A stretch of DNA of 64,000 bases from a virus (taxonomy: Duplodnaviria; Caudoviricetes): IMG/VR virus record IMGVR_UViG_3300042914_002678, one strand, 5' to 3'. Below, piece by piece: positions 5,503 to 59,885 of this stretch; the stretch's first letter is position 1, and the number at the start of each line of letters is the position of its first letter. The position numbers and the translations under genes were made by a program. The notes below the pieces were generated by a model. That model made no database searches and had not been told where the DNA came from. It saw only the letters and a program-made list of their open reading frames with translations.

Positions 5503-5523
5503 TAATAACTACATAGTGTAAAC

Positions 5524-5559: not shown

Positions 5560-5580
5560 AAGTAACAAGTTAAAAGTTTT

Positions 5581-5890: not shown

Positions 5891-5897
5891 CTTTATT

Positions 5898-5970
5898 GGG
5901 CGATTAACTCAGCGGTTAGAGTGTCTGCTTTACACGCAGAAAGTCCGCAGTTCGAATCTGCGATTGCCCA
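5898..5970 (+). tRNA. tRNA-Val(TAC)
   Basis: Acceptor GGGCGAT/ATTGCCC, anticodon arm TCTGC-tTTACAc-GCAGA. Confidence 0.93.
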
Positions 5971-14221: not shown

Positions 14222-14241
14222 AATACTTTAATGTAAAAAAT

Positions 14242-39676: not shown

Positions 39677-39684
39677 TATAAATA
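39677..39684 (+). promoter_or_regulatory. T4-type late promoter
   Basis: TATAAATA upstream of the fibre gene; another at 46866. Confidence 0.65.
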
Positions 39685-45700: not shown

Positions 45701-46870
45701 GGACTTCAAGGTACACAAGGACTTCAGGGACTTCAAGGTACTCAAGGTCTTCAAGGTACTCAAGGTCTTCAAGGTACTCAAGGACTGCAGGGTACTCAAG
45801 GACTCCAAGGTAATCAAGGACTCCAAGGTAATCAAGGACTTCAAGGTACTCAAGGTCTTCAAGGACTTCAAGGCAATCAAGGTCTTCAAGGACACCAGGG
45901 AACTCAAGGTCTTCAAGGTAATCAAGGCAATCAAGGACTTCAAGGTGCTCAAGGTCTTCAAGGTAATCAAGGACTTCAAGGTCTTCAAGGACTTCAGGGA
46001 GATCAAGGAACTCAGGGTACTCAAGGACTTCAGGGATTAAGTAATCAAGGGGTTCAAGGTCTTCAGGGAGATCAAGGAACTCAGGGTACTCAAGGACTTC
46101 AGGGAGATCAAGGAACTCAGGGTACTCAAGGACTTCAAGGTAATCAAGGACTTCAAGGTCTTCAAGGACTTCAGGGAGATCAAGGAACTCAAGGTACTCA
46201 AGGACTTCAAGGTAATCAAGGACTTCAAGGTCTTCAAGGACTTCAGGGAGATCAAGGAACTCAAGGTACTCAAGGTCTTCAGGGTACTCAAGGTGCTCAA
46301 GGACTTCAAGGTAATCAAGGATTGCAAGGCACTCAAGGACTTCAAGGTAATCAAGGATTGCAAGGCACTCAAGGACTTCAAGGTAATCAAGGAAGGCAAG
46401 GCACTCAAGGACTTCAAGGTAATCAAGGATTGCAAGGCACTCAAGGACTTCAAGGTAATCAAGGAAGGCAAGGACTTCAGGGACTTATTGGAACTCCTAT
46501 TCCATGGACAGTAAAAACTGCAAATTACACTGCTGTTGCAAAAGACCAAATACTCGCCAATACCTCTGGTGGATCTTTTACTATTACTTTACCAGCATCT
46601 CCATCTTCTGGTGATTATATTCGTATTGGTGATGACAACGATTGGTTTACTAATAATTTAACAGTCGCTAGAAATGGAAGTACAATTGAAGGATTGAGTG
46701 ATGATTTTGTATTAGATATTAAGGGAATTATAGTTGAGTTTGTTTATAATGGTTCTACATGGCAAGTTTATTCTTATGCTGGTCCAGCGGGCGCTCAAGG
46801 TACTACTGGATCTAGTACAAGTGGTGGTGGAACTGGTGATATTTTAGAGATTATGTTATTTGCACTATAA
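39743..46870 (+). CDS. Giant Gly-X-Gln collagen-like tail fibre/adhesin (2375 aa)
   Basis: Four GXQ blocks, two paralogous globular spacers (IDDSTS..KG.FS), five PxxxxFxxDGTKMY propeller-like repeats, VGIGTTNP fibre motifs, C-terminal ANTSGGSFTITLPASP domain. Confidence 0.88.
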   Translation: MSIRVRLGTGEGDNTRIRLESGEGNGIKVVSSIYGSQGTQGLQGLSNQGVQGSLSNFQGSQGLQGNQGLQGHQGTQGAQGLQGNQGLQGNQGTQGTQGLQGLSNQGVQGLQGDQGTQGLQGTQGLQGLSNQGVQGLQGERGAQGFQGLQGLQGNQGLSNQGVQGTQGLQGFAGSSGAVGLQGAEGSFGGASFEYLYYNTSVIDEDPGSGNVGFNTVQLNSASYLYISKIDSNSTDLTTFIRTIDDSTSNIKGHFSIKPEGSNLSSLFSIVGLSTEYSEYFSVPITYLSGSVSSLNNDDLIVLTFARTGDIGDTGLQGNQGLQGHQGTQGLQGNQGLQGHQGTQGLQGTQGLQGLSNQGVQGLQGDQGTQGTQGLQGLSNQGTQGTQGLQGDQGTQGTQGLQGNQGLQGHQGTQGTQGLQGDQGLQGDQGTQGLQGDQGTQGTQGLQGLSNQGVQGLQGDQGAQGLQGTQGLQGLSNQGVQGLQGDQGTQGTQGLQGNQGTQGLQGLSNQGVQGLQGDQGTQGTQGLQGTQGTQGLQGTQGLQGDQGTQGTQGLQGLSNQGVQGLQGDQGTQGLQGTQGLQGLSNQGTQGLQGTQGLQGTQGLQGLSNQGTQGLQGTQGLQGTQGLQGLSNQGTQGTQGTQGLQGTQGLQGDQGTQGADGIQGIFGSYSSSAFRYTFDLSISETEPDPGHIKFNNSNFSLCTKLIISKSDFYNVGLSTFLETIDDSTSDHKGYFSVKDLNNYQHYVIFSISPSESGSIYPNYIIFNCSYVSGITTSQPPSEIGDPISDVIISFSRTGDLGDQGVQGLQGGGSQGFQGLQGNQGTQGLQGLSNQGVQGLQGDQGTQGTQGLQGTQGTQGLQGNQGLQGHQGTQGTQGLQGDQGLQGDQGLQGDQGTQGLQGDQGTQGTQGLQGLSNQGIQGLQGNQGLQGTQGLTGPIAGSANQIVYKDGSNNPTGSGNLTFDGTNLYVGGNVTIGGTSVLIAATTLVVNDKDIIVGLATTAGGIVISNDNTANHGGIAVASTEGSPLFNISAGLGTDDIPSTYKQIMWLKSGTLTGLNTDAWLFNYAVGVGTDQVPNGVRLAAGAINVLDNKLNVAGDIDFSGTFYQNGSPFVASRWSAGTGDDIYRLNGNVGIKTSSPQSALDVRGTISIGRTDASTVNTIYSVVDINSWEYGGISLAVGGQDTAPTDIYFKDDGTKMFILGDTGNDVNEYALSTAWEVNTATFTTNFVVGGQETFPTGLYFKPDGTRMYICGQTGVSPTGDRVYSYTLSNPWSLVGVTTDTVAGAGTTVKNFNVGANDTGPQGLYFKDDGTKMYVVGSTGDAVYEYTVSTAWEIDSTVTLNHTLLIGATNTQNLPLTLTAPTGIDFNDTGIKMYITDSARDLVARFDLSTPWDLSTAVFYDNVYVGFQDLTPNGIFYQEDQSKAYVVGDSNNTVYQYNTDVPSLEFASSGISTRSSVIINNEARLKNRLYVTDTAHFSRPVTVKESLQIDGAVATSSNLTVSGGTITTGNVAATLLSGNTTTNITLASGQTSGTLIVGGASQTGTITIDQSASGHILNIATGANASGVGKTVNIATGGASGSRTLITVGSAVAGAASTVFIPSPTSLGIGITNPGATLNVVPTTTSIAGLFSGTTSSDMVRITQLGSGNALVVEDSANPDATPFVVSADGSVGIGTTNPLGPLHLQSNTPIIRFAESDASANNRNWNVGVNNQEFYWQALSDVGSGGGNLFKFTRSAEQIQTFEGLNGGVTWFEVDNSTQRVGIGTSIASAVLDVRGTPWFSPNTTGVKATALRLGTLVDGVNAAFDIITNDNTGDDIEVQSNRFTGKLRFSRSSPSGIQTTFILDSNYLTGTSISIADTTGTTTKIKIDEAGNTFFNNSGAVLVGTATSTGTASQRLQVTGGAYVSGNTGIGTTNPSDPLDVNGNIRVRSALKDYYGNVGAAGSVLTVVGAGIGVSWTPPFAAGLQGTQGLQGLQGTQGLQGNQGLQGTQGLQGLQGTQGLQGTQGLQGTQGLQGTQGLQGNQGLQGNQGLQGTQGLQGLQGNQGLQGHQGTQGLQGNQGNQGLQGAQGLQGNQGLQGLQGLQGDQGTQGTQGLQGLSNQGVQGLQGDQGTQGTQGLQGDQGTQGTQGLQGNQGLQGLQGLQGDQGTQGTQGLQGNQGLQGLQGLQGDQGTQGTQGLQGTQGAQGLQGNQGLQGTQGLQGNQGLQGTQGLQGNQGRQGTQGLQGNQGLQGTQGLQGNQGRQGLQGLIGTPIPWTVKTANYTAVAKDQILANTSGGSFTITLPASPSSGDYIRIGDDNDWFTNNLTVARNGSTIEGLSDDFVLDIKGIIVEFVYNGSTWQVYSYAGPAGAQGTTGSSTSGGGTGDILEIMLFAL
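39844..40296 (+). repeat. Collagen-like 9-nt repeat block 1
   Basis: Tandem GGN-NNN-CAR units with GGTTTAAGTAATCAA (GLSNQ) interruptions. Confidence 0.9.
40664..41731 (+). repeat. Collagen-like 9-nt repeat block 2
   Basis: Long GGTCTTCAA/GGTACTCAA/GGAGATCAA array with higher-order duplications. Confidence 0.92.
42129..42547 (+). repeat. Collagen-like 9-nt repeat block 3
   Basis: Same units; long stretches nearly identical to block 2. Confidence 0.9.
45638..46490 (+). repeat. Collagen-like 9-nt repeat block 4
   Basis: GXQ array enriched in GGACTTCAA units. Confidence 0.9.
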
Positions 46871-46894
46871 ATATTCAAAAACTATAGGGATATA

Positions 46895-47257: not shown

Positions 47258-49309
47258 ATGGCAGGTAAAAGTGTAAATTCTATTGGTTCAAAGAATTGGT
47301 CACCGGGACCACCAGCAACAAGATATAATGCAAGTGGTAAGAACCGCGAGTTTTATACTTTTGAAAATGCCCCCGGTTTAGGAAATTATGCAACTGGTGG
47401 AACCATTATTGACGGTGGTGATGGATACATTTATCATATCTTCACTGGTGATGGAACCTTTGCAGTTAATCGTCCTCCTGCGGTAATTGATAGTGTTGAT
47501 TATATGATTGTTGCAGGCGGCGGGGCGGGTGGTGCGGGATCTGGCGGCACTATTCCCGGCGGTGGAGGGGGTGCCGGTGGGATGTTATTTGGTAATATTG
47601 GTGTTTCTAATGCTCCAGGATCTTATTCAATTTCTATTGGTGGCGGTGGTGCATCTAATGGACCTAATAATCCATCGGCATCAAGACACGGAGTTAATTC
47701 CGCAGCATTTGGATTAACTGCCGAAGGAGGTGGGGGTGGTGGAGGTAATGGACCTTTCCCTCTAATAAGTTCGCAGGCGCTCGGGGATCCTGGAGGATCT
47801 GGTGGTGGAGCTTTCAGTGCCCCACCCACAGGTGGTAGATCTGGAGGAACAGGAAATACTCCTGAAACTATACCAAGACAGGGATATCCAGGCGCTCCAT
47901 CATCAATGCCCAACAGTAGCCCCCCGGCTATTGGTGGCGGTGGCGGTGGAGCAGGTGGTGCAGGTGGGCATGAAGCAAATGGTGATCCAGCTGGTCCACC
48001 TTTTGTTCCCAGAGGTTATGGTGGACCAGGAAGACTCGTTCCTCAATTTCCAATTCCTATTATTGGGAAAGCAATTCCATCAACAAATTATCCAGTTTGG
48101 TACAATGATGTAGCGGAAGGGAGCACTTATTCTGGAAATTCTGGAGGTGGATTATCTGCTGGAGGAAGAGCATGGCCTCCACCATCTAATTCTTCACCAC
48201 AACTTAATGCTACTGATAATACTGGTCATGGTGGAATTGGTCAAACAACATCTCCAGGATTTAATGGTGGTTCTGGAATTGTTTGCATAAGATACAAAAA
48301 AAATGCACCTTACACAAGAGCAACTGGTGGAACAGTAGAACCAAGTACTCATCCAGAACATCCTGGTGTATGGAGACATATTTTTACTTCTCCTGGAGAT
48401 TTTACTGTTACTGACCCAACACTTCAATGGATTGATTATCTTGCTGTTGGTGGTGGTGGAGGAGGCGGTTCTTATATTGGAGGTGGTGGTGGTGCCGGTG
48501 GTTTTGTGTCTTCCATTCATAATTCCACAACAACACCACTTGTAATTCCAGAGGCATATCCTTGGAACCCAGGTTATTCGGTAAGAGCAGGAGAACAATA
48601 TCCTGTGGGTGTTGCAACTTATCCAATTGGTATTGGAACTGGCGGTGCTGGCGGTAATAGTGCAAATCCTCTACCACAATCCGGATCTCCTGGTCAAAAT
48701 ACAACAATAGGAAATCCAGGAGCATTACAGATTATTGCATATGGTGGTGGAGGAGGTGGTGGATCCATTGTACATGTTAATCCATCCCCACCCGGAGCAA
48801 GAATTGCAGGTGGTGCTGGTGGATCTGGTGGAGGTGCTTGTGGGACTAACGGAGCACCTCCACCATTTTATACCGTTAATGGTGGAAGTGCTTCTCCAAG
48901 TCCACTAATTCAAGGAAATCCAGGAGCTTCTACGCCTGGTGCAGGGGCCCCCAACGGTGGACTTGGTGGTGGTGCTGCAAGCACCCCCTCAACCCCAACT
49001 AACGGAGGTTGGTATTCTGTTTTGTCTCCATCTGCTTATGGAACTCCAGGACCACTTACACCAACTGCAATATATAGATATTTTGCTGGAGGTGGAGGTG
49101 GTGGAGGTAATCCTGGAAACGGTACTTCAGGAGGAGCAGGTGGAGGAGGTAGGGGTGGAAGCATTCCAGGAGCTCCAGATGGTCATCCCGTTAATGGTGT
49201 AGATGGAACCACCAACACTGGTGGTGGTGGAGGTGGAGGTGCTGAAGAATCCACCGCAATAGGGGGATCTGGCGGTCCTGGCATTGTTATTATTCAATAT
49301 CCAGAATAA
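47258..49309 (+). CDS. Gly/Pro-rich virion protein with two Gly-rich domains
   Basis: Two units ATGGT..HIFT.G.F..DY..V.GGG...GG.GIV.I.Y. Confidence 0.8.
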   Translation: MAGKSVNSIGSKNWSPGPPATRYNASGKNREFYTFENAPGLGNYATGGTIIDGGDGYIYHIFTGDGTFAVNRPPAVIDSVDYMIVAGGGAGGAGSGGTIPGGGGGAGGMLFGNIGVSNAPGSYSISIGGGGASNGPNNPSASRHGVNSAAFGLTAEGGGGGGGNGPFPLISSQALGDPGGSGGGAFSAPPTGGRSGGTGNTPETIPRQGYPGAPSSMPNSSPPAIGGGGGGAGGAGGHEANGDPAGPPFVPRGYGGPGRLVPQFPIPIIGKAIPSTNYPVWYNDVAEGSTYSGNSGGGLSAGGRAWPPPSNSSPQLNATDNTGHGGIGQTTSPGFNGGSGIVCIRYKKNAPYTRATGGTVEPSTHPEHPGVWRHIFTSPGDFTVTDPTLQWIDYLAVGGGGGGGSYIGGGGGAGGFVSSIHNSTTTPLVIPEAYPWNPGYSVRAGEQYPVGVATYPIGIGTGGAGGNSANPLPQSGSPGQNTTIGNPGALQIIAYGGGGGGGSIVHVNPSPPGARIAGGAGGSGGGACGTNGAPPPFYTVNGGSASPSPLIQGNPGASTPGAGAPNGGLGGGAASTPSTPTNGGWYSVLSPSAYGTPGPLTPTAIYRYFAGGGGGGGNPGNGTSGGAGGGGRGGSIPGAPDGHPVNGVDGTTNTGGGGGGGAEESTAIGGSGGPGIVIIQYPE

Positions 49310-49323
49310 GGAGGTAAAATTAT

Positions 49324-49716
49324 ATGGCACACTTTGCACAGATTGGTTATGATAATAAAGTCTTAAGAGTATCCGTTGTAAGAAACGAAGATATTCTTGA
49401 CGAAAATGGAAATGAAAGTGAAGAAGTAGGAATACAGTTTCTCAAATCAGTTCACGGACCTTTAACAAATTGGTTACAAACTTCATATAACAGTAATTTT
49501 AGATGTCGTTATGCTGGTACTGGAATGGTTTATGATAATCAACACGATGTATTTTTACTTCCTCAACCCTATCCTTCTTGGTCTTTAAATACTGAAACTT
49601 ATGAATGGGAACCTCCAATACCTGAACCAGAACTTACAGAGGAACAAAGAGAATCTGGAAGTTATTATGAGTGGAATGAAGAAACTCAAGAATGGGAATT
49701 AAAGACTGCAACTTGA
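49324..49716 (+). CDS. Fibre-associated protein (MAHFA.. family)
   Basis: MAHFAQI..WLQTSYN.NFRCRYA..YD...DVF..PQPY.SW.L....WEPP. Confidence 0.7.
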   Translation: MAHFAQIGYDNKVLRVSVVRNEDILDENGNESEEVGIQFLKSVHGPLTNWLQTSYNSNFRCRYAGTGMVYDNQHDVFLLPQPYPSWSLNTETYEWEPPIPEPELTEEQRESGSYYEWNEETQEWELKTAT

Positions 49717-49772
49717 GGTTTTTATAAAAGTGATATATAATGGTGATGAATAAATTATAAGGAGATTGAAAT

Positions 49773-50393
49773 TTGGCATTCCAATCAATATGGTATCAAA
49801 CTGAGTTAAATCCAAAAATCATAGAAACAATTGAAGAAGACTTAACGGATAATTTTCAACAACAAATGGGAGACTCCAGACTAATGGGAGATGCTCTCAA
49901 TCGTGATAAAAGAAATTCAAAAAATGCCTGGGTTCCAACAACTCATTGGACTGCTGGATTTGTTTGGCATTATGTTGAAAGAGCAAATCGTGAGAATTTT
50001 TTATATGATATAAGAAATATTGATGGGGAGAGTATGCAATTCACTCAATATGGAGTTGGTGAGTTTTATGGTTGGCATAATGATGCCGGTATTGCCGGTC
50101 AATATAAACCAGTATCTGTTGGAAATCATCACGAAGGAAGAGCACAAGACTATCTAAATGAGAATCTAGAACTTGTAAGAAAACTTTCATTTGTGGTTCA
50201 ACTTTCAGATCCAGATGATTATGAGGGTGGAAATCTTCAACTTCTTGCAGAGGATGGTAAGTCTTATTTTGCTCCAAGAAAAAGAGGAACTGTAATTGTT
50301 TTTGACTCAAGAACTCAACATCGTGTTCTTAAAGTAACTAAAGGAACTCGTAAGAGTTTGGTCGGGTGGGTATGCGGTAAGAGGTGGTCCTGA
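49773..50393 (+). CDS. 2OG-Fe(II) oxygenase (prolyl-4-hydroxylase-like)
   Basis: QFTQY..GEFYGWHND, RKLSFVVQLSDPDDYEGG, FDSRTQHRV..VTKGTRKSLVGW. Confidence 0.88.
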   Translation: MAFQSIWYQTELNPKIIETIEEDLTDNFQQQMGDSRLMGDALNRDKRNSKNAWVPTTHWTAGFVWHYVERANRENFLYDIRNIDGESMQFTQYGVGEFYGWHNDAGIAGQYKPVSVGNHHEGRAQDYLNENLELVRKLSFVVQLSDPDDYEGGNLQLLAEDGKSYFAPRKRGTVIVFDSRTQHRVLKVTKGTRKSLVGWVCGKRWS

Positions 50394-50394
50394 A

Positions 50395-51114
50395 ATGGCA
50401 GAACAAATGACAGAAGAACAACTCTTCTACCAAGAAAGATTAAATACAGGAACTTCGAAGACCAATAATGAGTTCTTTGAAAAGAATGGATATTTGGTAA
50501 TTAAGAATCTGTGGGATTCAAAAGAACTTTATCGTCCAGTTCCAGAAGAAAGAGGACAGATTAATTATTGGGGTAAAAAATTAGATCAATTTACCTATCA
50601 CGAACTTGAAATGCAGGTAGAGGGATCTCTTGCTTGCTATTGGCACCCACAATATCGTTCAATTCATTCTGGTATTCGAATTAAATTAGAAAAAGAATTG
50701 GGAAGAAAACTTTATAATACTTATTATTATGATCGTTTTTATTTTCCAGGACAAGAACTAACAAGACACGCAGATCGTGATGCTTGTGAAATTTCTGTAA
50801 CAACTCATATTAGTACAAATCTTGAGGAACCTTGGCCCATTTGGATCAAAACTCCAGATACTTATGCGGATAAAAAGAAAACAATCATCTCAAAAAGAGG
50901 AGAAAATCGCTCAGTAATTCTAAATGCTGGTGATGGAATGGTCTATAAGGGATGTGAAAGACCTCATTGGCGAGATCCTATGCCTACTGAACATACAAGA
51001 ACTTGGTATGGTAAAAGAGTAGAAAAAGAAGGACTTTATTATCATCAAATCTTTTTTCATTATGTTCTTGCTGATGGACAAAGAGTGCAGTGTGCGAATG
51101 ATATGGCAAGGTAA
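50395..51114 (+). CDS. 2OG-Fe(II) oxygenase-like protein
   Basis: ELTRHADRDACEISVT, GDGMVYKGCERPHWR, QIFFHY. Confidence 0.75.
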   Translation: MAEQMTEEQLFYQERLNTGTSKTNNEFFEKNGYLVIKNLWDSKELYRPVPEERGQINYWGKKLDQFTYHELEMQVEGSLACYWHPQYRSIHSGIRIKLEKELGRKLYNTYYYDRFYFPGQELTRHADRDACEISVTTHISTNLEEPWPIWIKTPDTYADKKKTIISKRGENRSVILNAGDGMVYKGCERPHWRDPMPTEHTRTWYGKRVEKEGLYYHQIFFHYVLADGQRVQCANDMAR

Positions 51115-51139
51115 TAAATAGTAAAAAATGTGATATAAA

Positions 51140-51349
51140 ATGCCAACCAGTTTATCGTCATTTTTAGGAACTACTTATAATGGACTTCAAGGTGTTCAAG
51201 GAGCAATTGCTTCTCAGGGATCTCAAGGTCTTCAAGGAGGTCAGGGGATTCAAGGTGTTGGAGGATCATTTAGTACACAAGGTGTTCAGGGTCTTCAAGG
51301 TCGTTCTGAAATTGGACTTGCCATACTTTCTTACTTGTCTCCTTCTTAA
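51140..51349 (+). CDS. Mini collagen-like protein 1 (69 aa)
   Basis: MPTSLSSFLG + GXQ repeats + hydrophobic C-terminus LAILSYLSPS. Confidence 0.7.
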   Translation: MPTSLSSFLGTTYNGLQGVQGAIASQGSQGLQGGQGIQGVGGSFSTQGVQGLQGRSEIGLAILSYLSPS

Positions 51350-51355
51350 AATAAA

Positions 51356-51565
51356 ATGCCAACTTCATTAAGTACTTTTTTATCAACTCAAACTCAAGGG
51401 ACTCAAGGTGTTCAGGGGCGTAGTTTTCAAGGAACTCAGGGTGTTATTGGAAGTCACCAAGGTGCTCAAGGAATTACAGGTGAATTAGTGGGACAAGGAA
51501 CACAGGCAACACTTGCTAAAAATGCTAAAGGTCTTTCAATGCTTGCTTGGTTGACACCTGGATAA
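51356..51565 (+). CDS. Mini collagen-like protein 2 (69 aa)
   Basis: MPTSLSTFLS + GXQ repeats + LSMLAWLTPG. Confidence 0.7.
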   Translation: MPTSLSTFLSTQTQGTQGVQGRSFQGTQGVIGSHQGAQGITGELVGQGTQATLAKNAKGLSMLAWLTPG

Positions 51566-51593
51566 ATATAAATATCTGAAAAACTGAAAGTAA

Positions 51594-51965
51594 ATGGCAG
51601 CACCAAACATTGTTAATGTTTCTTCTATTGTAGGTATTACAACTTTTGTTGCTAATATTAGTACAGGTTGGTCTGTAATAATTTCTAATCCTGAGTCTAG
51701 TAATTCGGTATATAAGGTCAATACATTACTTGCTTCTAATACTACTGGAACTTCTGCAAATATTACTGTTGATTATTTTAGTCAAGCAGCAGGAGCAGGA
51801 ACTTCCGTTTCAATCGGGACTACAATTTCAGTTCCTGCTGGATCTACACTCGCATTAATTGGAAAAGATACACCTCTTTATATTGAAGAAAATAGATCAA
51901 TAGCAGCACAGGCAGGAACTGCAAATTCAATTGATATTCTTGCTTCTTATGAGACTATTAGTTAA
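51594..51965 (+). CDS. Small beta-rich virion-associated protein
   Basis: MAAPNIVNVSSIVG...YKVNTLLASN...LYIEENRSI. Confidence 0.7.
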   Translation: MAAPNIVNVSSIVGITTFVANISTGWSVIISNPESSNSVYKVNTLLASNTTGTSANITVDYFSQAAGAGTSVSIGTTISVPAGSTLALIGKDTPLYIEENRSIAAQAGTANSIDILASYETIS

Positions 51966-51970
51966 TAAAA

Positions 51971-52930
51971 ATGACTAGAAATATTGGAAACTTTATTGGA
52001 AAATCCCCAGATAATGGTGGATTTTTTAATAGTTTATCTCAGCAAGTTCTTATAAAAACAAATATTTGGAATAGAATTGATATAGAAGGAGGAACTCCCC
52101 ATATTCCAGGAAATGGATATAGATATCATGTTTTTACAAGCACTGGAACATTAACTGTAAATAGTGGTGGTTCTGTTCAGTATCTTGTAATTGCTGGTGG
52201 TGGAAGTGGATCTCCTGGTCCCAGTTTTGAAAGTGGAGGTGGAGGTGGAGCAGGAGGATTCGTAAGTACCACAACTACCATTGGACCAGGAAGATATACA
52301 ATTACCATTGGTGGTTCTGAATCTAATTCTTCTATTGTAGGACCTCCTCTATTTACTTCTATAACCTCTCAAAGAGGTGGTGGGGGGAGCGGTACTGGTA
52401 GTGGTTCTCCTGGTGGATCTGGTGGCGGCGGCGCTGGGAATGCACCAATAAATTACTCCGGCGGAGCAGGAAACTCCCCATCAATACCTGCACTACTTGG
52501 TGGTCCGCAAGGTAATCCTGGCGGGACCGGCGGTAGTGCGTTTAATCCAGAAGCGAATGCAGGTGGAGGAGGTGGAGGTGCCGGTTCTTCTGGATCGCCA
52601 GGTTTGGGAGCTGCACCTCCTGGTGCCGGTGGTGCAGGTGGTGCAGGGAAAACTGCTTTTAGTGGTGATACTGGATTACCTGGTGCCTATGGGATGCCTG
52701 GACCTACTGCTGGACGTTGGTTTGCCGGTGGAGGAGGTGGTGGTGGAGATGATGGTTATACTACTCCATCACTTGGTGGATCTGGTGGTGGTGGAAATGG
52801 AGGAGGAGCAGACGATTCTGGATCTCCTGGAAAAATTAATACTGGATCTGGAGGTGGTGGAGGAGAAGGTGGTGGATCTGGTGGATCGGGTGGTTCTGGA
52901 ATTGTAATTTTCAGATACTTATATTCTTAA
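51971..52930 (+). CDS. Gly-rich domain virion protein
   Basis: GG..HIPGNGYRYHVFTSTG...GGSGIVIFRY. Confidence 0.8.
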   Translation: MTRNIGNFIGKSPDNGGFFNSLSQQVLIKTNIWNRIDIEGGTPHIPGNGYRYHVFTSTGTLTVNSGGSVQYLVIAGGGSGSPGPSFESGGGGGAGGFVSTTTTIGPGRYTITIGGSESNSSIVGPPLFTSITSQRGGGGSGTGSGSPGGSGGGGAGNAPINYSGGAGNSPSIPALLGGPQGNPGGTGGSAFNPEANAGGGGGGAGSSGSPGLGAAPPGAGGAGGAGKTAFSGDTGLPGAYGMPGPTAGRWFAGGGGGGGDDGYTTPSLGGSGGGGNGGGADDSGSPGKINTGSGGGGGEGGGSGGSGGSGIVIFRYLYS

Positions 52931-52942
52931 TAGGTAAATTAT

Positions 52943-53935
52943 ATGTCAAAGCATCTTGGAAATAGAATCGGATTTGGTGTTAGTACATATTCTGACGGTG
53001 GATTTTTTAATCTATCTTCTCAATCTTTTTTACTTAGAAAAAATAAATGGGTAAGTAAAGCAGTTATTGCAGGTGGAACAGTATTAACACCTGGAAATGG
53101 ATATAAGTATAATATTTTTACTGCCACAGGACCACTTACGATTTCTAATGGTGAAATTTATGTAGATTATATGATTGTTGCTGGTGGTGCAGGGGGTGCT
53201 ACTGGAAATGGTTCATTTACTGACACAACTGGTGGTGGTGGTGGTGCTGGTGGAGTTTCTGAAGGAACTGTTTTACTTTCTCCTGGATCTTATACTATTT
53301 CTGTGGGTGGTGGTGGCGCACAATCTACAGACGGAACCCCATCTTCCATTTCAAACCAGCCAAATGTCAATGTTGTAATAGGTGGTGGAACTGGTGGAGT
53401 TTTTCCTGCCCCAAATTCTGGAAGACCTGGTGGTTCTGGTGGAGGTGGAGGAGGAGGAACCTCTTTATTTCATGGTGGAAATGGAACAGGGGATCAAGGA
53501 ACTCCTGGTGGATACTGTGCTATTTTTTCATTTGCATCAGGTGGTGGTGGGGGTGCTGGTGGTGCTGGTGGTTCTGGAACTTCACCTGGTCCTGGAAATC
53601 TTGCTGGTCCTGGTGGAGTTGGTAGAGCAGCATTTTTAGGAGATTCTGGTATTCCACCTTCTTACGGAACCCCTGGTCCTACCCCTGGTAGATTTTTTGG
53701 CGGTGGTGGTGGTGGTGGCGCTTCTCCAACTCCTGTTACAACGCCATCAACTGGTGGTGCTGGTGGAGGAGGTGCTGGTGGAAGATCAAGTGCAACTGCA
53801 GGGATTAGAAATGGAACTTCAGGAACAACCAACACTGGCGGCGGCGGTGGTGGTGGTGGTGCTTCTCCTACTGGTGGCACTGGCGGTTCTGGTGGATCTG
53901 GAATTGTTATACTTCGTTATAAAGCATATACATAA
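52943..53935 (+). CDS. Gly-rich domain virion protein
   Basis: GGTVLTPGNGYKYNIFTATG...GGSGIVILRY. Confidence 0.8.
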   Translation: MSKHLGNRIGFGVSTYSDGGFFNLSSQSFLLRKNKWVSKAVIAGGTVLTPGNGYKYNIFTATGPLTISNGEIYVDYMIVAGGAGGATGNGSFTDTTGGGGGAGGVSEGTVLLSPGSYTISVGGGGAQSTDGTPSSISNQPNVNVVIGGGTGGVFPAPNSGRPGGSGGGGGGGTSLFHGGNGTGDQGTPGGYCAIFSFASGGGGGAGGAGGSGTSPGPGNLAGPGGVGRAAFLGDSGIPPSYGTPGPTPGRFFGGGGGGGASPTPVTTPSTGGAGGGGAGGRSSATAGIRNGTSGTTNTGGGGGGGGASPTGGTGGSGGSGIVILRYKAYT

Positions 53936-53959
53936 TTAAAAAAATAATTTCATACAGTT

Positions 53960-54373
53960 ATGGCACATTTTTCTGAATTAGATGAAAACAATATCGTAAA
54001 ACAAACAATCGTAGTATCCAACCAAGATACTTCTGATTTAAATGGTGTGGAAGTAGAAGAAATTGGAATAGCATTTTGTAAAAAATTATTTGGGGCAAAT
54101 ACTAAATGGAAACAAACTTCATATAATAATAATTTTAGATGTCGTTATGCTAGTCCTGGAATGACTTATAATGAAGAATATGATGTATTTTTGAATCCAC
54201 AACCATACTCTTCTTGGATTTTAAATACCGATACATATGAATGGGAAGCACCAGTTTCTCAACCAGAAATTACAGAGGAACAAAAAGAAAATTTTTATTA
54301 TTATGAATGGAATGAAACTAATTTAAGTTGGGATTTTAAACAAAGAGAAAATCCCGCACAAAATATGGTATAA
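53960..54373 (+). CDS. Fibre-associated protein (MAHF.. family), paralog of 49324..49716
   Basis: Same motifs; shared DNA AATTTTAGATGTCGTTATGCT. Confidence 0.72.
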   Translation: MAHFSELDENNIVKQTIVVSNQDTSDLNGVEVEEIGIAFCKKLFGANTKWKQTSYNNNFRCRYASPGMTYNEEYDVFLNPQPYSSWILNTDTYEWEAPVSQPEITEEQKENFYYYEWNETNLSWDFKQRENPAQNMV

Positions 54374-54395
54374 TAATTTTAAAGTTGTAATAAGT

Positions 54396-55373
54396 ATGAG
54401 TAATTTTGTAAAACTTGCGTTGGAAAATGGGGGATCTATTCATCCACTTATTATTCCTTCAACAGATTTAAAGGGACCTGCAATAACAAATCCATCAATT
54501 TATAATGATAATGGTAAACTCATTGTCAATCTTAGAAATATCAATTACACACTTTATCATTCTGAGAAAAAAACATTTGAGCACCACTGGGGGCCACTAG
54601 TTTATATTCACCCAGAAAATGATATGCGTTTGCGTACATGGAATGTAATTGGTGAACTGGATGAAAATCTGAGACTTAAATGGCATACTCATATTGATAC
54701 TTCTAAACATCCCGATAAAGAACTTTGGGAGTTTGTTGGATTAGAAGATGCTCGTATTTTTAGATGGGAAGGTAAACTTTATACGTGTGGTGTGAGAAGG
54801 GATCTTGATACCATTGGCACGGGAAGAATGGAACTTTGTGAGATTGAAATTGTAGATGGCGTGGTTAAAGAACTAAGTCAACACCGTATTCCAACTCCAG
54901 GAGATAACAGTTCTTATTGTGAAAAGAATTGGATGCCAATTCTTGATATGCCATATCATTTTGTTAAATGGACGAATGGTACAGAAGTTGTTAAATATGA
55001 TATTCACACTGGTCAGACAACTCAGGTTGTTATAAAAGAATGGACAGATCTAGGGTGTATTGATCTTCGTGGAGGATCTCAGGTTATTCCTTTTGGTGAA
55101 TATCGTCTTGCTTTAAATCATGAAACTTTTCTCACCAGAAGTCCCGCAGGCAGAAAGGACGGTACTTACCGCCACAGATTTATTGTTTGGGATAAAGATT
55201 GGAATATTGTAAAAGTTTCAAGAAGGTTTTCTTTCTTAGAAGCAGAGATTGAATTTGCCGTTGGTATGTGCGAATATGGTGATGACTATCTAATTACATT
55301 TGGTTTCCAGGATAATGCTGCTTATCTTTTGAAAGTTAATAAAAAATTTGTTTCTAATTATATACTTGAATAA
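54396..55373 (+). CDS. Predicted beta-propeller glycoside hydrolase/phosphorylase-like protein
   Basis: TNPSI, GLEDARIF, CEKNWMP, RGGSQ, IEFAVG. Confidence 0.55.
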   Translation: MSNFVKLALENGGSIHPLIIPSTDLKGPAITNPSIYNDNGKLIVNLRNINYTLYHSEKKTFEHHWGPLVYIHPENDMRLRTWNVIGELDENLRLKWHTHIDTSKHPDKELWEFVGLEDARIFRWEGKLYTCGVRRDLDTIGTGRMELCEIEIVDGVVKELSQHRIPTPGDNSSYCEKNWMPILDMPYHFVKWTNGTEVVKYDIHTGQTTQVVIKEWTDLGCIDLRGGSQVIPFGEYRLALNHETFLTRSPAGRKDGTYRHRFIVWDKDWNIVKVSRRFSFLEAEIEFAVGMCEYGDDYLITFGFQDNAAYLLKVNKKFVSNYILE

Positions 55374-55375
55374 TT

Positions 55376-55942
55376 ATGGCATCACTAACATCTGAAATAG
55401 TAATCTCTTTTTTGAAAAATTTAACTGAAGATCAAAATGATTATGAAGTTTTTATAGAATCCGGAACTAAAGGAGGGACAACTATAATGAATTTGATTTC
55501 TTCTTTTAAAGTTCTCCATACAATTGAGTTGTCTGAAAATTATTATAACTTTTTTGACTCTATTAAAAAAGAACAAAACTACACTAATGTAGTAAATCAT
55601 TTGGGGGCTACTGAAAATTTATTGTCAGATATTTTACAAAGTCTAAATTCTAATGAACGTGTAGTTTTTTGGTTAGATGGTCACTGGTCTTCTTTTGATA
55701 CTGCCAGAGGTGAAAAAGATTGTCCACTACTTGACGAGTGTTCAATTATAGACAGTACATACAAATCAAATAAAGCTGTTATACTGATCGATGACTATAG
55801 ACTCTTTGGAACTAACATGGTAGAGGACTGGTCAGAAGTTACTCTGAAAAATGTAATATCATGTTTCAAAAACCATAGTCTTTTCTACTTTATTAGGGAT
55901 GATATTTTGGCTATTTTGATAGAAAAAAATGTTAACATTTAA
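55376..55942 (+). CDS. Putative SAM-dependent methyltransferase
   Basis: FIESGT..G, HTIELS, FWLDGH, ILIDDYR. Confidence 0.6.
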   Translation: MASLTSEIVISFLKNLTEDQNDYEVFIESGTKGGTTIMNLISSFKVLHTIELSENYYNFFDSIKKEQNYTNVVNHLGATENLLSDILQSLNSNERVVFWLDGHWSSFDTARGEKDCPLLDECSIIDSTYKSNKAVILIDDYRLFGTNMVEDWSEVTLKNVISCFKNHSLFYFIRDDILAILIEKNVNI

Positions 55943-56768
55943 TTATCTTGGACATTTAGGTAGACTTGGAAATCAAATGTTTCAATATGCTACTCTTTTA
56001 GGAATAGCAAATCACAATAATTATGATTACACACTTCCACCAAATTTAACAGATCATATAGAACTATATAAGTGTTTTGAATTGGACAATTTTAGTACAA
56101 AAATATCAGATTGGTCTTCATTTGAAAGAATATCTCCAAAGATTCATTCTTTTGATAAAAAATTTTTTGATCAATGTCCAGGAAATGTTGATATACTAGG
56201 ATTTTTTCAAACGGAAAAATATTTTACACATATAAAAGATACTATCAAAAAGCATTATACTTTTAAAAAAGATATTTTTAATACTTCAAGACAATGTTTT
56301 AATCAATTAAGTATTGATAATGAAGTTATTTCATTGCACATTAGAATGACAGACAGCACAGGTCATGACATTATGAAAAATCTTGATCTTGATTATTATA
56401 AAAAATCTTTATCTTGTTTTGATAGAGATTTACCAGTAATAATTTTTTCTGACGATGTTGAAACTTGTATGAGGCTAAGTATTTTTCACGGATCTAGATT
56501 TTCTTTTTCACAGTCTTCAAGTCATTTTGTAGATTTGTGTATGATGACCATGTGTAAATACCATATAATCTCAAACAGTACCTTTGCTTGGTGGGGCGCT
56601 TGGTTATCGGACAGTAACAAAGTTATTGCTCCAAAAAAATGGTATACTGATTATGTCCATAATACTAAAGAATGGCATGAAATATCGCAACTTACTTGGA
56701 ATCCATATGAAGATGGTACTGTTTGGGAATCAAAAGATGTTTGTCCTGATGAATGGATTTTAATATGA
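55929..56768 (+). CDS. Glycosyltransferase family 11 (third copy)
   Basis: GRLGNQMFQY, SLHIRMTD, IISNSTFAWWGAWL. Confidence 0.9.
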   Translation: MLTFNYLGHLGRLGNQMFQYATLLGIANHNNYDYTLPPNLTDHIELYKCFELDNFSTKISDWSSFERISPKIHSFDKKFFDQCPGNVDILGFFQTEKYFTHIKDTIKKHYTFKKDIFNTSRQCFNQLSIDNEVISLHIRMTDSTGHDIMKNLDLDYYKKSLSCFDRDLPVIIFSDDVETCMRLSIFHGSRFSFSQSSSHFVDLCMMTMCKYHIISNSTFAWWGAWLSDSNKVIAPKKWYTDYVHNTKEWHEISQLTWNPYEDGTVWESKDVCPDEWILI

Positions 56769-58885
56769 ATGTTTCACTAATTTGTGCATGTAAAAATAGA
56801 AATGCACCACTTAAAATTTCTCTTTCCTCTTGGTTGTTATTTAAAGAAATAACAGAGATTATTATTGTTGATTGGAGTTCTGACGAATCTCTTAGGGAAT
56901 TAACTGATTGGGACGAAAGAATTAAAGTCATTAATGTTCCTAATCAAACTTATTTTAATCAACCACAACCATTAAACCTTGCTGCCAATGTTGCAACTGG
57001 GGATTATATACTTAAGGTAGACACTGATTATATTTTAAATCCTTACTTTAATTTTTTTGAACATTACAAGATTGATAATGAATCTTTTTTGTGTGGACAG
57101 AATGATTATGAGCAAGTAGAAATTAATTCAAGTCCATATTTTAAATATTTAAGAGGTCTTCTTTACATTAGTAGAGAAAATTATTTAAAAGTAGGTGGTT
57201 TTAATGAAATTCATACTCAATATTATGCTTATGAGGATGACGAAATATCTCATCGTTTAGAACTTCTTGGATTAAAAAAACATAAAGTAGAATATAATCA
57301 TAATATTATTCATATTCCTCATCCTGATAAAAAAAGACTAGAAAATTTTGAAGCTTATCATACGGATAAGAACTTAGAAATGAATGTTCGCAATATGCTT
57401 TCTTCTTACTATAAAGGTGATGAACTTGAATGGCAAATTGAGTATGTTCTTGCTCAACAGCACATTGAAATAAATCGACAGAAATCTTTGTCCGAAATTG
57501 CAAGTTATTATTTTAAATCTGATATTGTTTGGAATTTAGAAAAAGTTACGGATCAATTTTATATTGCTTCAAAAAATTTAAATAATAAGTTAAATAAATT
57601 CCCCAAAGCATATTTTATGACTTTGGAGGAAAGTGCAGAAAGGCAAAAAAATATTAAAAATCAATTTTTAGAATATGGAATAAAGATTACTCCAGTAATT
57701 TCAAAAAGATTTTCAGAATCTAATGATACTGTTGTCGGAAAATATCTTTTCCAATTAAATTCTGGCACTGCAGGTTGTTGTGTTTCTCATTTGAAAGCAA
57801 TTAAAAAATGGTATGATGAAACTGAAGACGAATATGCATTTTTTTGTGAGGATGATCTTAGTTTAGAGACCGTTCAATACTGGGACTTTACTTGGGAAGA
57901 ATTTATAAAAAATCTCCCTAATGATTGGGATGTTGTTCAGTTGGTTACTATTCGGGAAGACTTTGGGAACTTTAAAGTAAGAGAAAGATATTGGGACGAT
58001 TGGAGTGCTACCGCCTATATCATAACAAGGGATTATGCTAAAAAAATAATAGACAATTATATTAAAGGTGATGTTTACTTTTTAGAGATACCTAATTCTA
58101 ATGTGATGCCTTTAATTGAAAATATATTATTTACTACTTTGGGTAAATGTTATACTGTTCCTCTTTTTGTAGAAGAAGTTGAATTAGAATCTACATTTAC
58201 AAAAGAACAAGATAATGACGTTAATGTCGGACAAAAAAGAAATCATTATCATGCAAGTAAATCTGTATTAGAATATTGGAAATCTAAAAACAAAATTAGT
58301 TCTCTTGCTGAAAAAACAGAACTTGAAAATCTTTTGGAAGCATATTCTTTAGATACAGAAAATCCAGATCATAATTTTAATCTTGGAGTTTGGTATGAAA
58401 ATCAAGGACACACTGCCCCAGCTCTCTCATATTTTCTAAGGTGCGCTGAAAGAGCAACAAACTCTGATCCTACTCTTGCATATGAGGCATTAATTCGTGC
58501 ATCTTATTGTTATGATAAACAAGGTACAAGAGACGGTAGTGCAAGATCATTATTATGGCAAGCACAAATGTTTTTACCAAGTCGCCCAGAAGCATATTTC
58601 TTACTGGCAAGATTTGCTCAAAAGCGTGAGTGGTGGCAAGATTGTTATTCAACTGCCGAACTTGCATTAATTCATTGTGATTTTAATCTTCCACCATTAA
58701 AAACCGATGTTGAATATCCTGGTAAACAGGGAATTTTATTTGCAAAGGGTGTTTCTGGATGGTGGTGGGGTAAAGTTGAAGAATCTAGATCTTTACTTCT
58801 AAATATTTTAAAAGAATATACAGTTTCCGAAAAAGATAAGGATATTCTGATCAATAATCTTGCTAAGATGGGTGTTGAGGTATGA
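56765..58885 (+). CDS. Multidomain GT2/GT7 - GT25 - TPR-like protein
   Basis: IIIVDWSS..KVDTD..GGFNE..YEDD; GCCVSH..FCEDD..SATAY; helical C-term (HNFNLGVWYE, AYFLLARF). Confidence 0.8.
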   Translation: MNVSLICACKNRNAPLKISLSSWLLFKEITEIIIVDWSSDESLRELTDWDERIKVINVPNQTYFNQPQPLNLAANVATGDYILKVDTDYILNPYFNFFEHYKIDNESFLCGQNDYEQVEINSSPYFKYLRGLLYISRENYLKVGGFNEIHTQYYAYEDDEISHRLELLGLKKHKVEYNHNIIHIPHPDKKRLENFEAYHTDKNLEMNVRNMLSSYYKGDELEWQIEYVLAQQHIEINRQKSLSEIASYYFKSDIVWNLEKVTDQFYIASKNLNNKLNKFPKAYFMTLEESAERQKNIKNQFLEYGIKITPVISKRFSESNDTVVGKYLFQLNSGTAGCCVSHLKAIKKWYDETEDEYAFFCEDDLSLETVQYWDFTWEEFIKNLPNDWDVVQLVTIREDFGNFKVRERYWDDWSATAYIITRDYAKKIIDNYIKGDVYFLEIPNSNVMPLIENILFTTLGKCYTVPLFVEEVELESTFTKEQDNDVNVGQKRNHYHASKSVLEYWKSKNKISSLAEKTELENLLEAYSLDTENPDHNFNLGVWYENQGHTAPALSYFLRCAERATNSDPTLAYEALIRASYCYDKQGTRDGSARSLLWQAQMFLPSRPEAYFLLARFAQKREWWQDCYSTAELALIHCDFNLPPLKTDVEYPGKQGILFAKGVSGWWWGKVEESRSLLLNILKEYTVSEKDKDILINNLAKMGVEV

Positions 58886-59637
58886 TACCAGTTATTGGTG
58901 TTCCTATTGTTAATGGAGTTTATCTCCTTGAAAAATTGATTGAAAGTATTGATTATCCTGTAAATCATTTGTTTATTATTAACAATAATGGTAGAGGAGA
59001 AATTGATCAAGAATTAGATGAAATATCTAAAAAAAGTCACAAATATATAAACAAGATAAAAGTTTCTCATTTACCTTCAAATCTTGGTTGTTCTGGATCT
59101 TGGAATTTAATCATAAAATGTTATATGACATGTCCATATTGGATTATTTGTTCTCATGATATTTCTTTTTCTCCAGGACTTCTTATGGAGGTCTTTGAAA
59201 AAATGCAAGATCCTAATATTAAATTTTTAAATTATGAAAAAAGTTGGGAGTGGTTTGCAATCAGAGATACTCTTATCCAAGAGTGTGGTTTATTTGACGA
59301 AAATTTTTATCCTGCTTACTGTGAAGATGTTGATTATTTTTTTAGATTAAAAAGTAAAAAAATTCCAATCTCTAAAGTTAAAATAGGACACAATAGAATT
59401 AATAATGAAGGAAGTCAAACTTGGAGGAAAGAAAGGTCTTTAGAAAAAAGACTTTCATATTCAAATGAATCTAATATGTATTATATTGTTAATAAATGGG
59501 GATATAATCCAGATATTGACGATTCTCCATGGCATATTAGTAACCCATATAAGTTTCCATTTAATAATCCCAATGTTTCGATTTCTGATACTTCATATGA
59601 TTTAAAATTTATTCGTAGAAAACATTTAGGATTTTAA
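58882..59637 (+). CDS. Glycosyltransferase family 2
   Basis: NLGCSGSWN, ICSHDI, GLFDENFYPAYCEDVDY. Confidence 0.82.
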   Translation: MIPVIGVPIVNGVYLLEKLIESIDYPVNHLFIINNNGRGEIDQELDEISKKSHKYINKIKVSHLPSNLGCSGSWNLIIKCYMTCPYWIICSHDISFSPGLLMEVFEKMQDPNIKFLNYEKSWEWFAIRDTLIQECGLFDENFYPAYCEDVDYFFRLKSKKIPISKVKIGHNRINNEGSQTWRKERSLEKRLSYSNESNMYYIVNKWGYNPDIDDSPWHISNPYKFPFNNPNVSISDTSYDLKFIRRKHLGF

Positions 59638-59642
59638 CAATT

Positions 59643-59885
59643 ATGAATTTTACAATTTATTCAAAACAAGGCTGCCCATATTGCGATAAAGTTAAAAACG
59701 TGTTAGAATTGACAAAACAAAAATACGTTACTTATACTCTTGACGAAGATTTTAGTAGAGAAGAATTTTACGCAGAATTTGGAGAGGGATCTACGTTTCC
59801 ACAAGTTGTTTGTAACGATAAAAAAATAGGAGGATCAGTTGACACAATCAAATTCCTCAAGGAACAACAAATCATTAAATCATAA
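59643..59885 (+). CDS. Glutaredoxin
   Basis: CPYC, TFPQV, IGG. Confidence 0.92.
   Translation: MNFTIYSKQGCPYCDKVKNVLELTKQKYVTYTLDEDFSREEFYAEFGEGSTFPQVVCNDKKIGGSVDTIKFLKEQQIIKS

Follow-up and report, generated by a model that had tools for sequence, protein, structure and literature searches.

A 64,000-nucleotide stretch of phage DNA (Duplodnaviria; Caudoviricetes; IMG/VR record IMGVR_UViG_3300042914_002678), here called the window, encodes two adjoining 2-oxoglutarate (2OG)/Fe(II) oxygenases that lie between two cassettes of glycine-rich tail-fibre genes, with a block of glycosyltransferase (GT) genes downstream. The region consists of three separable units, the fibre cassettes, the oxygenase pair and the glycan island, and does not form a single pathway. 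We propose that the pair is linked to the fibres and probably directed at their prolines, and that the glycan island is independent. As an explanation of the whole region this is the best that we can offer, and we put its chances at about even; the three-module anatomy itself is firmer. Gene identities, folds, promoter motifs and co-occurrence statistics, all directly established, carry the argument.

The window represents a T4-like cyanomyovirus, with genes for psbA, psbD, ferredoxin, thyX and glutaredoxin and with tail-fibre PHROGs that match this type. A megablast search of the region against the phage collection returned two short matches only. 2OG/Fe(II) oxygenases are among the commonest accessory genes of marine and freshwater phages, and since 2005-2010 only guesses have been made about their purpose: nitrogen signalling, DNA repair, secondary metabolites or iron. 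Linking a defined oxygenase pair to the fibre family of Pam3 gp24 names a concrete, testable substrate.

The oxygenase pair and its fibre cassettes

The presence of two oxygenases between the fibre cassettes, first proposed in a sequence-only reading of the window, is borne out for both genes. The first protein (206 amino acids, aa) matches PF13640 (2OG-FeII_Oxy_3) at 57.7 bits, against a cut-off of 27, and phrog_61 with an E value of 3.9e-40. Residues H102, D104, H183 and R193 are invariant in 26 sequences, and their metal- and 2OG-binding roles are assigned by position. Its profile matches the PKHD hydroxylases 3dkq (5.8e-5) and PiuC, and weakly the chlorovirus prolyl 4-hydroxylase 5c5t (E 0.075). 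A literature search for the function of PiuC found nothing.

The second protein (239 aa) carries the database label 'ferrochelatase'. It has no Pfam match, to ferrochelatase or any other family, and its profile found nothing meaningful among PDB sequences. An AlphaFold2 (AF2) model built on 25 homologues (pLDDT 82.8) is matched by 2OG oxygenases in all top Foldseek and VIA results. The best is the P. putida prolyl hydroxylase P4H (4j25; Z 14.9, root-mean-square deviation (rmsd) 3.2 Å over 160 residues), tied with PHD2, PiuC, a PKHD protein and SnoN (Z 13.6-14.9) at identities of 12-16%. Residues H125, D127 and H191 are invariant in 25 sequences. Fold and invariant triad together show that the second oxygenase is real; the 'ferrochelatase' label for 50395-51114 is therefore wrong, and the missing Pfam match also speaks against it. 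The same label on its homologues (phrog_2954, phrog_3531, T4-GC 615) in GenBank, PHROGs and published papers looks wrong on the strength of this model, so that a widespread annotation is corrected. The first oxygenase is matched by phrog_3531 too, on another part of that profile, and fused two-domain forms may exist.

Alignment of the two oxygenase families by hhalign detected no relationship, and their kinship consequently rests on fold. A predicted complex of the two scored 0.00, which speaks neither for nor against binding. PPHD, PHD2/EGLN and PKHD/PiuC enzymes provide the closest solved folds for the second oxygenase and the closest profile matches for the first, whereas no counterpart of the EF-Tu and HIF substrates of PPHD and PHD2 is indicated here and small-molecule enzymes score equally. 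Lysyl hydroxylases of the PLOD/L230 type are absent from the matches listed for either protein, by sequence or by fold. A third 2OG oxygenase gene, of family PF13759, lies at 9206-9754, far from the fibre cassettes; this is the family placed between fibre and phrog_7759 genes in phages of the DSL-LC04 type.

Each cassette comprises a small threonine- and serine-rich protein, then one or two glycine-rich, putatively receptor-binding fibres resembling Pam3 gp24, and then a phrog_7759 protein. The fibre proteins encoded from 47258 (683 aa), 51971 (319 aa) and 52943 (330 aa) contain 27.4%, 33.5% and 32% glycine and 11.1%, 7.2% and 6% proline, respectively. All three exceed the PF21722 (Gly_rich_2) cut-off of 24.3 bits, and the earlier description of the neighbours of the oxygenases as proline- and glycine-rich holds at 27-34% and 6-11%. 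In an AF2 model of the 330-aa protein (pLDDT 86.3), the N-terminal helix and TNF-like sandwich are joined by a glycine-rich domain, the putative receptor-binding part. The model superimposes on the Pam3 fibre 7ypx_A (VIA Z 14.8, rmsd 2.5 Å, 180 residues, 28% identity) and on the tail tip of mycobacteriophage Bxb1 (9d93_Q, Z 13.9); the matches that follow are glycine-rich domains of ALK/LTK, at only about Z 7. A tblastn search with the same protein gave no match, for which the low-complexity filter is the probable cause.

Pam3 gp24 has three parts, namely an N-terminal helix, a TNF-like domain and a receptor-binding domain rich in glycine, and it needs the chaperone gp25, encoded directly downstream (PMC9608196; PDB 7ypx/7yfw). 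The likeness extends from the three-part fold of the 330-aa protein to the small gene 3′ of the fibre gene. Unlike Pam3, the window encodes several paralogous fibres, including a 683-aa two-domain form. It also encodes an oxygenase pair; the available part of the Pam3 paper mentions no oxygenase. The small gene that closes each cassette belongs to phrog_7759 and stands where Pam3 encodes gp25. Across 63 independent loci, a glycine-rich open reading frame (ORF) ends no more than 300 bp upstream of phrog_7759 in 44. Homologues of the 137-aa paralogue occur in 37 phage records from several host groups, and neither Pfam nor Atlas assigns a family. From this position we infer that phrog_7759 proteins are probably fibre assembly partners, that is, putative chaperones.

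The proteins of the fibre cassettes are rich in threonine and serine. Of the two small leading proteins, the 119-aa form was found in 38 of the 83 oxygenase-anchored loci described below. The 123-aa form is 45% identical to the product of a gene in phage DSL-LC04 (2959-3336 of the retrieved locus) that lies directly 5′ of a glycine-rich fibre gene. The two share the same cassette position, with no detectable similarity to each other. An alignment that includes the 319-aa fibre revealed a conserved motif that contains two X-Pro-Gly sites; remoter phrog_7759-anchored fibres were found not to have it, and it was dropped as a candidate for recognition in general. At the other end of the protein, four tandem glycine-rich fibre paralogues of HTVC023P (253-5949 of the retrieved locus) share the ending GGSG-(I/V)-V-(I/V)-IRYKFQ, and S-RSM4 gene 144 ends in the near-identical GGGG-IVIVRYKFQ. 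This C-terminal strand could serve the whole family for docking.

A giant collagen-like fibre, with repeats all but free of proline, and two mini-collagens go with these cassettes. The giant fibre (2375 aa) has 912 aa in 22 Gly-X-Y runs, or 304 triplets, of the Gly-X-Gln type: Y is glutamine in 267 of the 304 and proline in one, X is proline in two, and lysine is absent. With three prolines and no lysine, the triplets contain no X-Pro-Gly or X-Lys-Gly sites. The tandem mini-collagens (69 aa each, with homologues in six related loci) both begin with MPTSLS, contain a small number of Gly-X-Gln triplets and end in a hydrophobic tail, and their Gly-X-Y runs lack proline and lysine. Neither protein type fits the pattern of collagen prolyl and lysyl hydroxylation, in which proline or lysine at Y is the acceptor. 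For want of such sites, we do not regard the collagen repeats as the hydroxylation target and hold the proline-bearing tips of the glycine-rich fibres to be the likelier substrate, and the analogy with Mimivirus collagen that had been drawn for this region fails on the same count.

The three units also differ in their promoters. The cyanomyovirus late motif NATAAATA (PMC2984593) has eight + strand copies between 37 and 61 kb. Six are placed 26-101 nt ahead of four genes, those for the giant fibre, the 119-aa protein, the first mini-collagen and the 123-aa protein, and the remaining two (37671 and 60793) are outside the cassettes; on the same strand and within the same limits, none precedes an oxygenase or transferase gene. 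The first oxygenase is instead preceded by a sigma-70-type promoter, a motif that, with its leader, has a single copy in the window. The pattern TTGNNN-N16-18-TANNNT (mostly TTGACA-N17-TATATAAT) is kept upstream of the first oxygenase in 55 of 70 distinct relatives, none of which has a late motif there. A leader of about 30 nt (49742-49772) between promoter and start codon is also conserved in relatives, for example as TGAATACATTAT followed by a purine-rich stretch, and may be a translation or stability element. The glycan island has an extended -10 element of its own, and similar TGn-TATAAT-like elements precede the homologue of its first gene, which encodes 325 aa, in most related loci. With their own promoters and without late motifs, the oxygenase and GT units therefore form separate host-type transcription units among late genes. 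Read-through into the enzyme genes from late promoters, such as that at 46866, is possible.

Linkage of oxygenases and fibres across phages

The arrangement recurs well beyond the window. Homologues of the first oxygenase were collected from 80 metagenomic viral loci and three annotated phages, 83 mutually related loci in all, and in every one of them the two oxygenase genes adjoin, at a median gap of 15 bp. This agrees with HTVC023P-type pelagiphages, in which every 'ferrochelatase' adjoins an oxygenase (PMC9599517), and with the same gene pair described as T4-GC 412/615 (PMC3037559), which lies in dioxygenase arrays of S-RSM4, S-PM2 and HTVC008M. Where the published reading differs from ours is that the 'ferrochelatase' models as a 2OG oxygenase, and that its context is one of glycine-rich fibres and phrog_7759 rather than iron or haem.

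Glycine-rich ORFs, defined by at least 24% glycine, account for 26-38% of the sequence over the 3 kb that precede the pair and for 20-33% between 2 and 4 kb after it, compared with no more than 15% elsewhere. Such an ORF lies near the pair in 35 of the 42 loci with enough flank. Named phages of unrelated types show the same neighbourhood. For example, in S-RSM4 a glycine-rich protein is followed by phrog_7759 and then by three oxygenases; in the pelagimyophage HTVC008M five dioxygenases accompany a glycine-rich protein and phrog_7759; and in the pelagipodophage HTVC023P four glycine-rich proteins in tandem stand with phrog_7759, two oxygenases and a 'ferrochelatase'. The trio of fibre, phrog_7759 and oxygenase is also present in P-RSM4. 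In the freshwater gammaproteobacterial phage DSL-LC04 the order is a homologue of the 123-aa protein, a glycine-rich protein, an oxygenase and phrog_7759, and the frames of the last two overlap inside a tail-fibre operon.

A second, independent anchor gives a consistent picture. Starting from phrog_7759 alone, 78 distinct loci were retrieved, 41 of them with both flanks, and 15 of these 41 have a 2OG oxygenase no more than 2 kb from phrog_7759. Counted per 10 kb, oxygenase genes number 1.11 at distances of up to 2.5 kb from phrog_7759 and 0.25 beyond, a 4.4-fold enrichment. The 47 neighbouring oxygenases fall mainly into PF13640 (24) and PF13759 (22), from which we conclude that two families were recruited independently to the same cassette. 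The oxygenases are thus probably tied in function to the glycine-rich fibre/phrog_7759 cassette, in this window and beyond it, as far as gene neighbourhoods can indicate.

The fibres themselves point to a substrate. Proline makes up 5.2% of fibres beside an oxygenase and 2.8% of those without one (p 3.5e-4), and the difference persists after clustering at 60% identity (5.75 against 2.77, p 1.7e-4). The enrichment is limited to the gene order of the window, namely fibre, phrog_7759 and then the PF13640-type pair, and PG dipeptides are doubled in fibres beside that pair. This is a correlation; it fits the pair as prolyl hydroxylases of the fibres. The enzymes would act on X-Pro-Gly-type sites in the glycine-rich fibres, before or during assembly. 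We infer this substrate and reaction from sequence and hold the prediction at slightly less than an even chance.

Several observations weigh against fibre hydroxylation. For the second oxygenase, small-molecule enzymes (SnoN, halogenases) reach the same Z scores as prolyl hydroxylases. The proposed substrates are late proteins, whereas the conserved promoter of the oxygenase unit is of host type (early type) and the unit lacks a late motif. The proline correlation is corrected for kinship only in part, by the 60% clusters, and not for host or base composition. 2OG oxygenases are common in marine and freshwater phages, at a background of 0.25-0.47 per 10 kb, and the region after the tail fibres is a usual site of accessory genes, so that the linkage could be partly positional. 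Roseophage CRP-207 has the fibre and phrog_7759 without an oxygenase, as do many other glycine-rich fibre/phrog_7759 cassettes, 26 loci of sufficient flank among them, so that any modification must be optional. Finally, the S-SM1 proteome table does not mark the sericin-like glycine-rich T4-GC 351 proteins as belonging to the virion, although their scarcity of lysine and arginine would conceal them from tryptic mass spectrometry.

Much of this could be accommodated if the pair were an early accessory unit for host takeover, unrelated to the fibres and placed beside them because the location is a favoured insertion site. Such a unit could hydroxylate a host protein such as EF-Tu or a ribosomal protein, influence the nitrogen response through NtcA by consuming 2-oxoglutarate, or modify a small metabolite. 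The conserved sigma-70-type promoter and the lack of a late motif suit this explanation, since early cyanomyovirus genes are thought to use unmodified host polymerase (PMC2984593). So does the best structural match, the EF-Tu prolyl hydroxylase PPHD, tied as it is with PHD2 and PiuC, and so do the high background of 2OG oxygenase genes, the many fibre cassettes that lack them, and a literature that reads such genes as linked to 2OG and nitrogen, DNA repair, secondary metabolites or iron. An unrelated insertion accounts poorly, however, for the 4.4-fold enrichment around phrog_7759, the recruitment of two oxygenase families by one cassette, and the proline enrichment of adjoining fibres. Further, in DSL-LC04-type phages the oxygenase sits between fibre and phrog_7759 with overlapping frames in a structural operon, and the linkage is kept in myoviruses, podoviruses and other phages of differing genome plan. 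On balance we regard the accessory-unit explanation, the chief competitor of fibre modification, as unlikely, but with a substantial share of the probability.

Published precedents are closest for the general idea of fibre-linked oxygenases. Bacterial operons whose dioxygenases and sulfotransferases would modify collagen-like or phage tail-collar proteins were predicted by Iyer, Abhiman, de Souza and Aravind (2010), who also described tandem dioxygenase arrays in Syn9 and read the cyanophage arrays as secondary-metabolite enzymes and not as fibre modifiers (PMC2938197). Those operons share with the present arrangement the placing of a hydroxylase gene next to that of a glycine-rich or fibre-like substrate, and the cyanophage dioxygenase families are the same; they differ in that the partner here is a Pam3-type glycine-rich fibre with phrog_7759, and no sulfotransferase takes part. 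EGLN3-like folds have been reported for phrog_61 oxygenases across marine phages in the Phold paper, the only one returned by a literature search on phage tail fibres and prolyl hydroxylases. The literature search turned up no publication connecting these oxygenases with glycine-rich tail fibres. An Ofd1-like 2OG oxygenase of S-SCSM2R (ORF269) has been detected by mass spectrometry in CsCl-purified virions (PMC12801897).

We speculate that many aquatic phages, among them abundant cyanophages and SAR11 phages, chemically edit their own receptor-binding proteins: the prolyl-hydroxylase-like PF13640-type pair or, in other lineages, a PF13759 enzyme would hydroxylate the glycine-rich tips of the tail fibres, and phrog_7759 would assist in their assembly. 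This generalisation is tentative, and we think it somewhat more probably wrong than right. If it is true, phage 2OG oxygenases listed as auxiliary metabolic genes would gain a structural role, with effects on fibre stability or host recognition, and hydroxylation of fibres, if real, would represent a novel form of post-translational control over how phages recognise their hosts.

Table 1. Positions in the window of the fibre, oxygenase and glycan features; all genes discussed in the text are on the + strand.
Feature	Position	Strand	Basis or remark
Possible GT-B/exostosin-like glycosyltransferase, 333 aa	38444..39445	+	sub-threshold Pfam only
T4-type late promoter motif TATAAATA	39677..39684	+	65 nt 5′ of giant fibre gene
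Giant collagen-like fibre, 2375 aa	39743..46870	+	Pfam Collagen 378.8 bits, tail-fibre PHROGs
Late promoter motif TATAAATA	46866..46873	+	before fibre cassette 1
Small Thr/Ser-rich cassette protein, 119 aa	46895..47254	+	phrog_20100
Gly/Pro-rich fibre protein, 683 aa, two Gly_rich_2 domains	47258..49309	+	PF21722 110.4 bits, phrog_2295
phrog_7759 protein, 130 aa, probable fibre assembly partner	49324..49716	+	phrog_7759 E 1e-42
Sigma-70-type promoter, TTGAGG-17-TATAAT within TATATAAT	49713..49741	+	oxygenase unit
2OG/Fe(II) oxygenase, 206 aa, PHD/PKHD-like	49773..50393	+	PF13640, T4-GC 412, phrog_61
Second 2OG/Fe(II) oxygenase, 239 aa, database label 'ferrochelatase'	50395..51114	+	T4-GC 615, phrog_2954, AF2 fold
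Late promoter variant AATAAATA	51113..51120	+	26 nt 5′ of first mini-collagen
Mini-collagen, 69 aa, Gly-X-Gln triplets	51140..51349	+	
Mini-collagen paralogue, 69 aa	51356..51565	+	
Late promoter motif TATAAATA	51567..51574	+	before fibre cassette 2
Small cassette protein, 123 aa	51594..51965	+	homologue in phage DSL-LC04 labelled 'putative lectin'
Pam3-gp24-like glycine-rich tail fibre, 319 aa	51971..52930	+	PF21722 30 bits
Pam3-gp24-like tail fibre, 330 aa	52943..53935	+	PF21722 49.1 bits, AF2 model
phrog_7759 paralogue, 137 aa	53960..54373	+	57% identical to 49324-49716
Extended -10 element TGGTATAAT	54366..54374	+	before glycan island
GH130/beta-mannosyltransferase-like protein, 325 aa, first island gene	54396..55373	+	Atlas neighbours, relatives' annotations
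188-aa protein	55376..55942	+	'methyltransferase' of the sequence-only reading, not confirmed
GT11 (fucosyltransferase-type) glycosyltransferase	55929..56768	+	PF01531 70.9 bits vs 23.9; phrog_2644
GT2/GT7C + GT25 + TPR-like tail fusion, 710 aa	56753..58885	+	PF00535 31.1, PF02709 25.7, PF01755 24.9 bits
GT2-family glycosyltransferase	58882..59637	+	PF00535 28.7 bits, phrog_29879
Glutaredoxin (grx), conserved anchor downstream of variable slot	59643..59885	+	PF00462

The glycan island

The GT genes behind the second cassette form a block that is inherited separately, in a variable slot upstream of grx and under its own promoter, as comparison of related loci indicates. In 42 loci with homologues of the 710-aa GT fusion, the fusion lies upstream of grx (and DUF6433) in 41 and is accompanied by the GH130-like gene in 30. 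The first oxygenase is present in only five of these 42 loci and a glycine-rich ORF in about five, even where 7-10 kb of upstream sequence is available. Conversely, GT genes occur in about six of the 83 oxygenase loci, and among 80 phrog_7759-anchored fibre loci the 325-aa GH130-like gene occurs once and the three transferases not at all. In close relatives with neither cassette 2 nor the GT island, grx comes immediately after the oxygenase pair, and the GT islands of relatives are mixed with genes that in the window lie in a second glycan island at 10-31 kb. A suspected foreign origin of the island, based on low G+C, was dropped: third-position G+C is uniform across all genes of the region (11-23%), so the island is not compositionally foreign, and the differences in G+C stem from glycine codons.

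The functional labels first given to the sugar genes fared unevenly. GT11 and GT2 exceed their Pfam cut-offs. In the fusion, the GT2, GT7C and GT25 domains do likewise, GT25 narrowly (residues 285-436, 24.9 bits against a cut-off of 24, with phrog_2835 at E 5.6e-52), while the TPR tail stays below threshold (TPR_6, E 4e-4). The gmd gene (14218-15243, 518.7 bits) and an fcl-like epimerase/reductase gene (15215-16186) are both present. The 'methyltransferase' at 55376-55942 went unconfirmed: nothing in Pfam (E up to 5), NCBIfam, PHROGs and PDB matched the 188-aa protein, nor does it resemble the Methyltransf_24 and TylF genes of the window. For the supposed propeller glycosidase at 54396, neither Pfam nor PDB sequences gave a match, and language-model neighbours provide a lead only: in Atlas clusters at 0.93-0.96, 32-37% of the members have PF04041 and 17% have PF12141, which points to GH130 or a beta-mannosyltransferase (BMT). 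Its relatives are annotated as beta-mannosyltransferase or MGP, and it is 55% identical to the S-SCSM2R 'MGP' gene. Upstream of the giant fibre, the proposed GT47-like gene at 38444 falls short of that family, with Exostosin_GT47 at 14.3 bits (cut-off 33.4) and RXYLT1_C at 16 bits (E 0.008, cut-off 27); its homologue sits in the GT island of two related loci.

These results bear on the pathway that the sequence-only reading had proposed, in which proline or lysine is hydroxylated and the GT25, GT11 and GT2 enzymes then build a fucose-capped glycan on the new hydroxyls, in the manner of Mimivirus. There, L230, a lysyl hydroxylase and glucosyltransferase, acts with viral collagen (PMC5802723, PMC9546862). 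Like L230 and the PBCV-1 prolyl 4-hydroxylase (5c5t), the window places a viral 2OG oxygenase beside repetitive structural proteins of its own, and like Mimivirus it encodes a GT25-family domain in the same genome. In contrast, its hydroxylases and transferases are neither fused nor co-inherited, the enzymes are PHD/PKHD-like, with no PLOD-type enzyme among the matches listed, and the collagen-like repeats have no hydroxylation sites. The genes are close together on one strand, cassette 2 is not separated from the GT genes by any predicted terminator, gmd, fcl and fucosyltransferase-type GTs are at hand, the TPR-like tail of the fusion could bind protein, and five related loci likewise put a GH130-like gene directly after the fibre cassette or oxygenases. 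Against this stand the counts given above, together with the island's own promoter, the set of same-family GTs far from the fibres, and the absence of lysine and near-absence of proline from the collagen repeats. The half of the proposal that ties oxygenases to fibre genes is upheld by co-occurrence; the half that ties the GT island to the oxygenases is not. Since the two enzyme sets are inherited, and probably transcribed, independently, glycosylation of new hydroxyls is not supported, and we consider the coupled pathway very improbable. The adjoining sugar-transferase genes should not be taken as the second half of a Mimivirus-like pathway.

Decoration of the virion could also proceed with no prior hydroxylation. 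Mycobacteriophages and chloroviruses glycosylate their virions with their own glycosyltransferases, and here the glycan island and the 10-31 kb island would together modify serine, threonine or asparagine on capsid, tail or fibres. The window is well supplied for such a task, with GT10, three GT11, two GT25 and several GT2 genes, nucleotide-sugar enzymes, a TPR-like tail on the fusion, and cassette proteins rich in threonine and serine. A phage-encoded precedent exists (mycobacteriophages; Freeman et al. 2023, as cited in PMC12801897). The island nevertheless lacks a late promoter, its linkage is conserved only to grx and to no structural gene, and published work on cyanophages leans towards the host surface or DNA as the target of modification; direct glycosylation of the virion therefore strikes us as doubtful, with a clear minority of the probability. 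Our preferred reading, an island independent of the oxygenase pair, is compatible with more than one acceptor. The island, gmd/fcl and the GT set at 26.8-31.5 kb would probably build a fucose-containing glycan, and its acceptor could be the host envelope or the virion.

Cell-wall- or LPS-type clusters of the large cyanomyoviruses P-SSM2, S-SCSM1 and S-SCSM2R (PMC12801897) share GT2, GT10, GT11, GT25, epimerases and an MGP/GH130-like gene with the window. They differ in that part of the set here occupies the slot between the fibre cassettes and grx. Similar GT families recur 25 kb upstream of the island, at 26.8-31.5 kb, where GT10, Methyltransf_24, two GT11 (28249 and 29918, paralogues of the island gene), a GT7C-like gene and GT25 adjoin photosynthesis genes. 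This set belongs to a glycan and nucleotide-sugar island of about 21 kb (10072-31517), which in addition holds GNAT, GT2, DegT aminotransferase, gmd, fcl-like, two nucleotidyltransferase-fusion and TylF-type methyltransferase genes and about ten ORFs without a family, and which amounts to an unusually large sugar toolkit for a phage.

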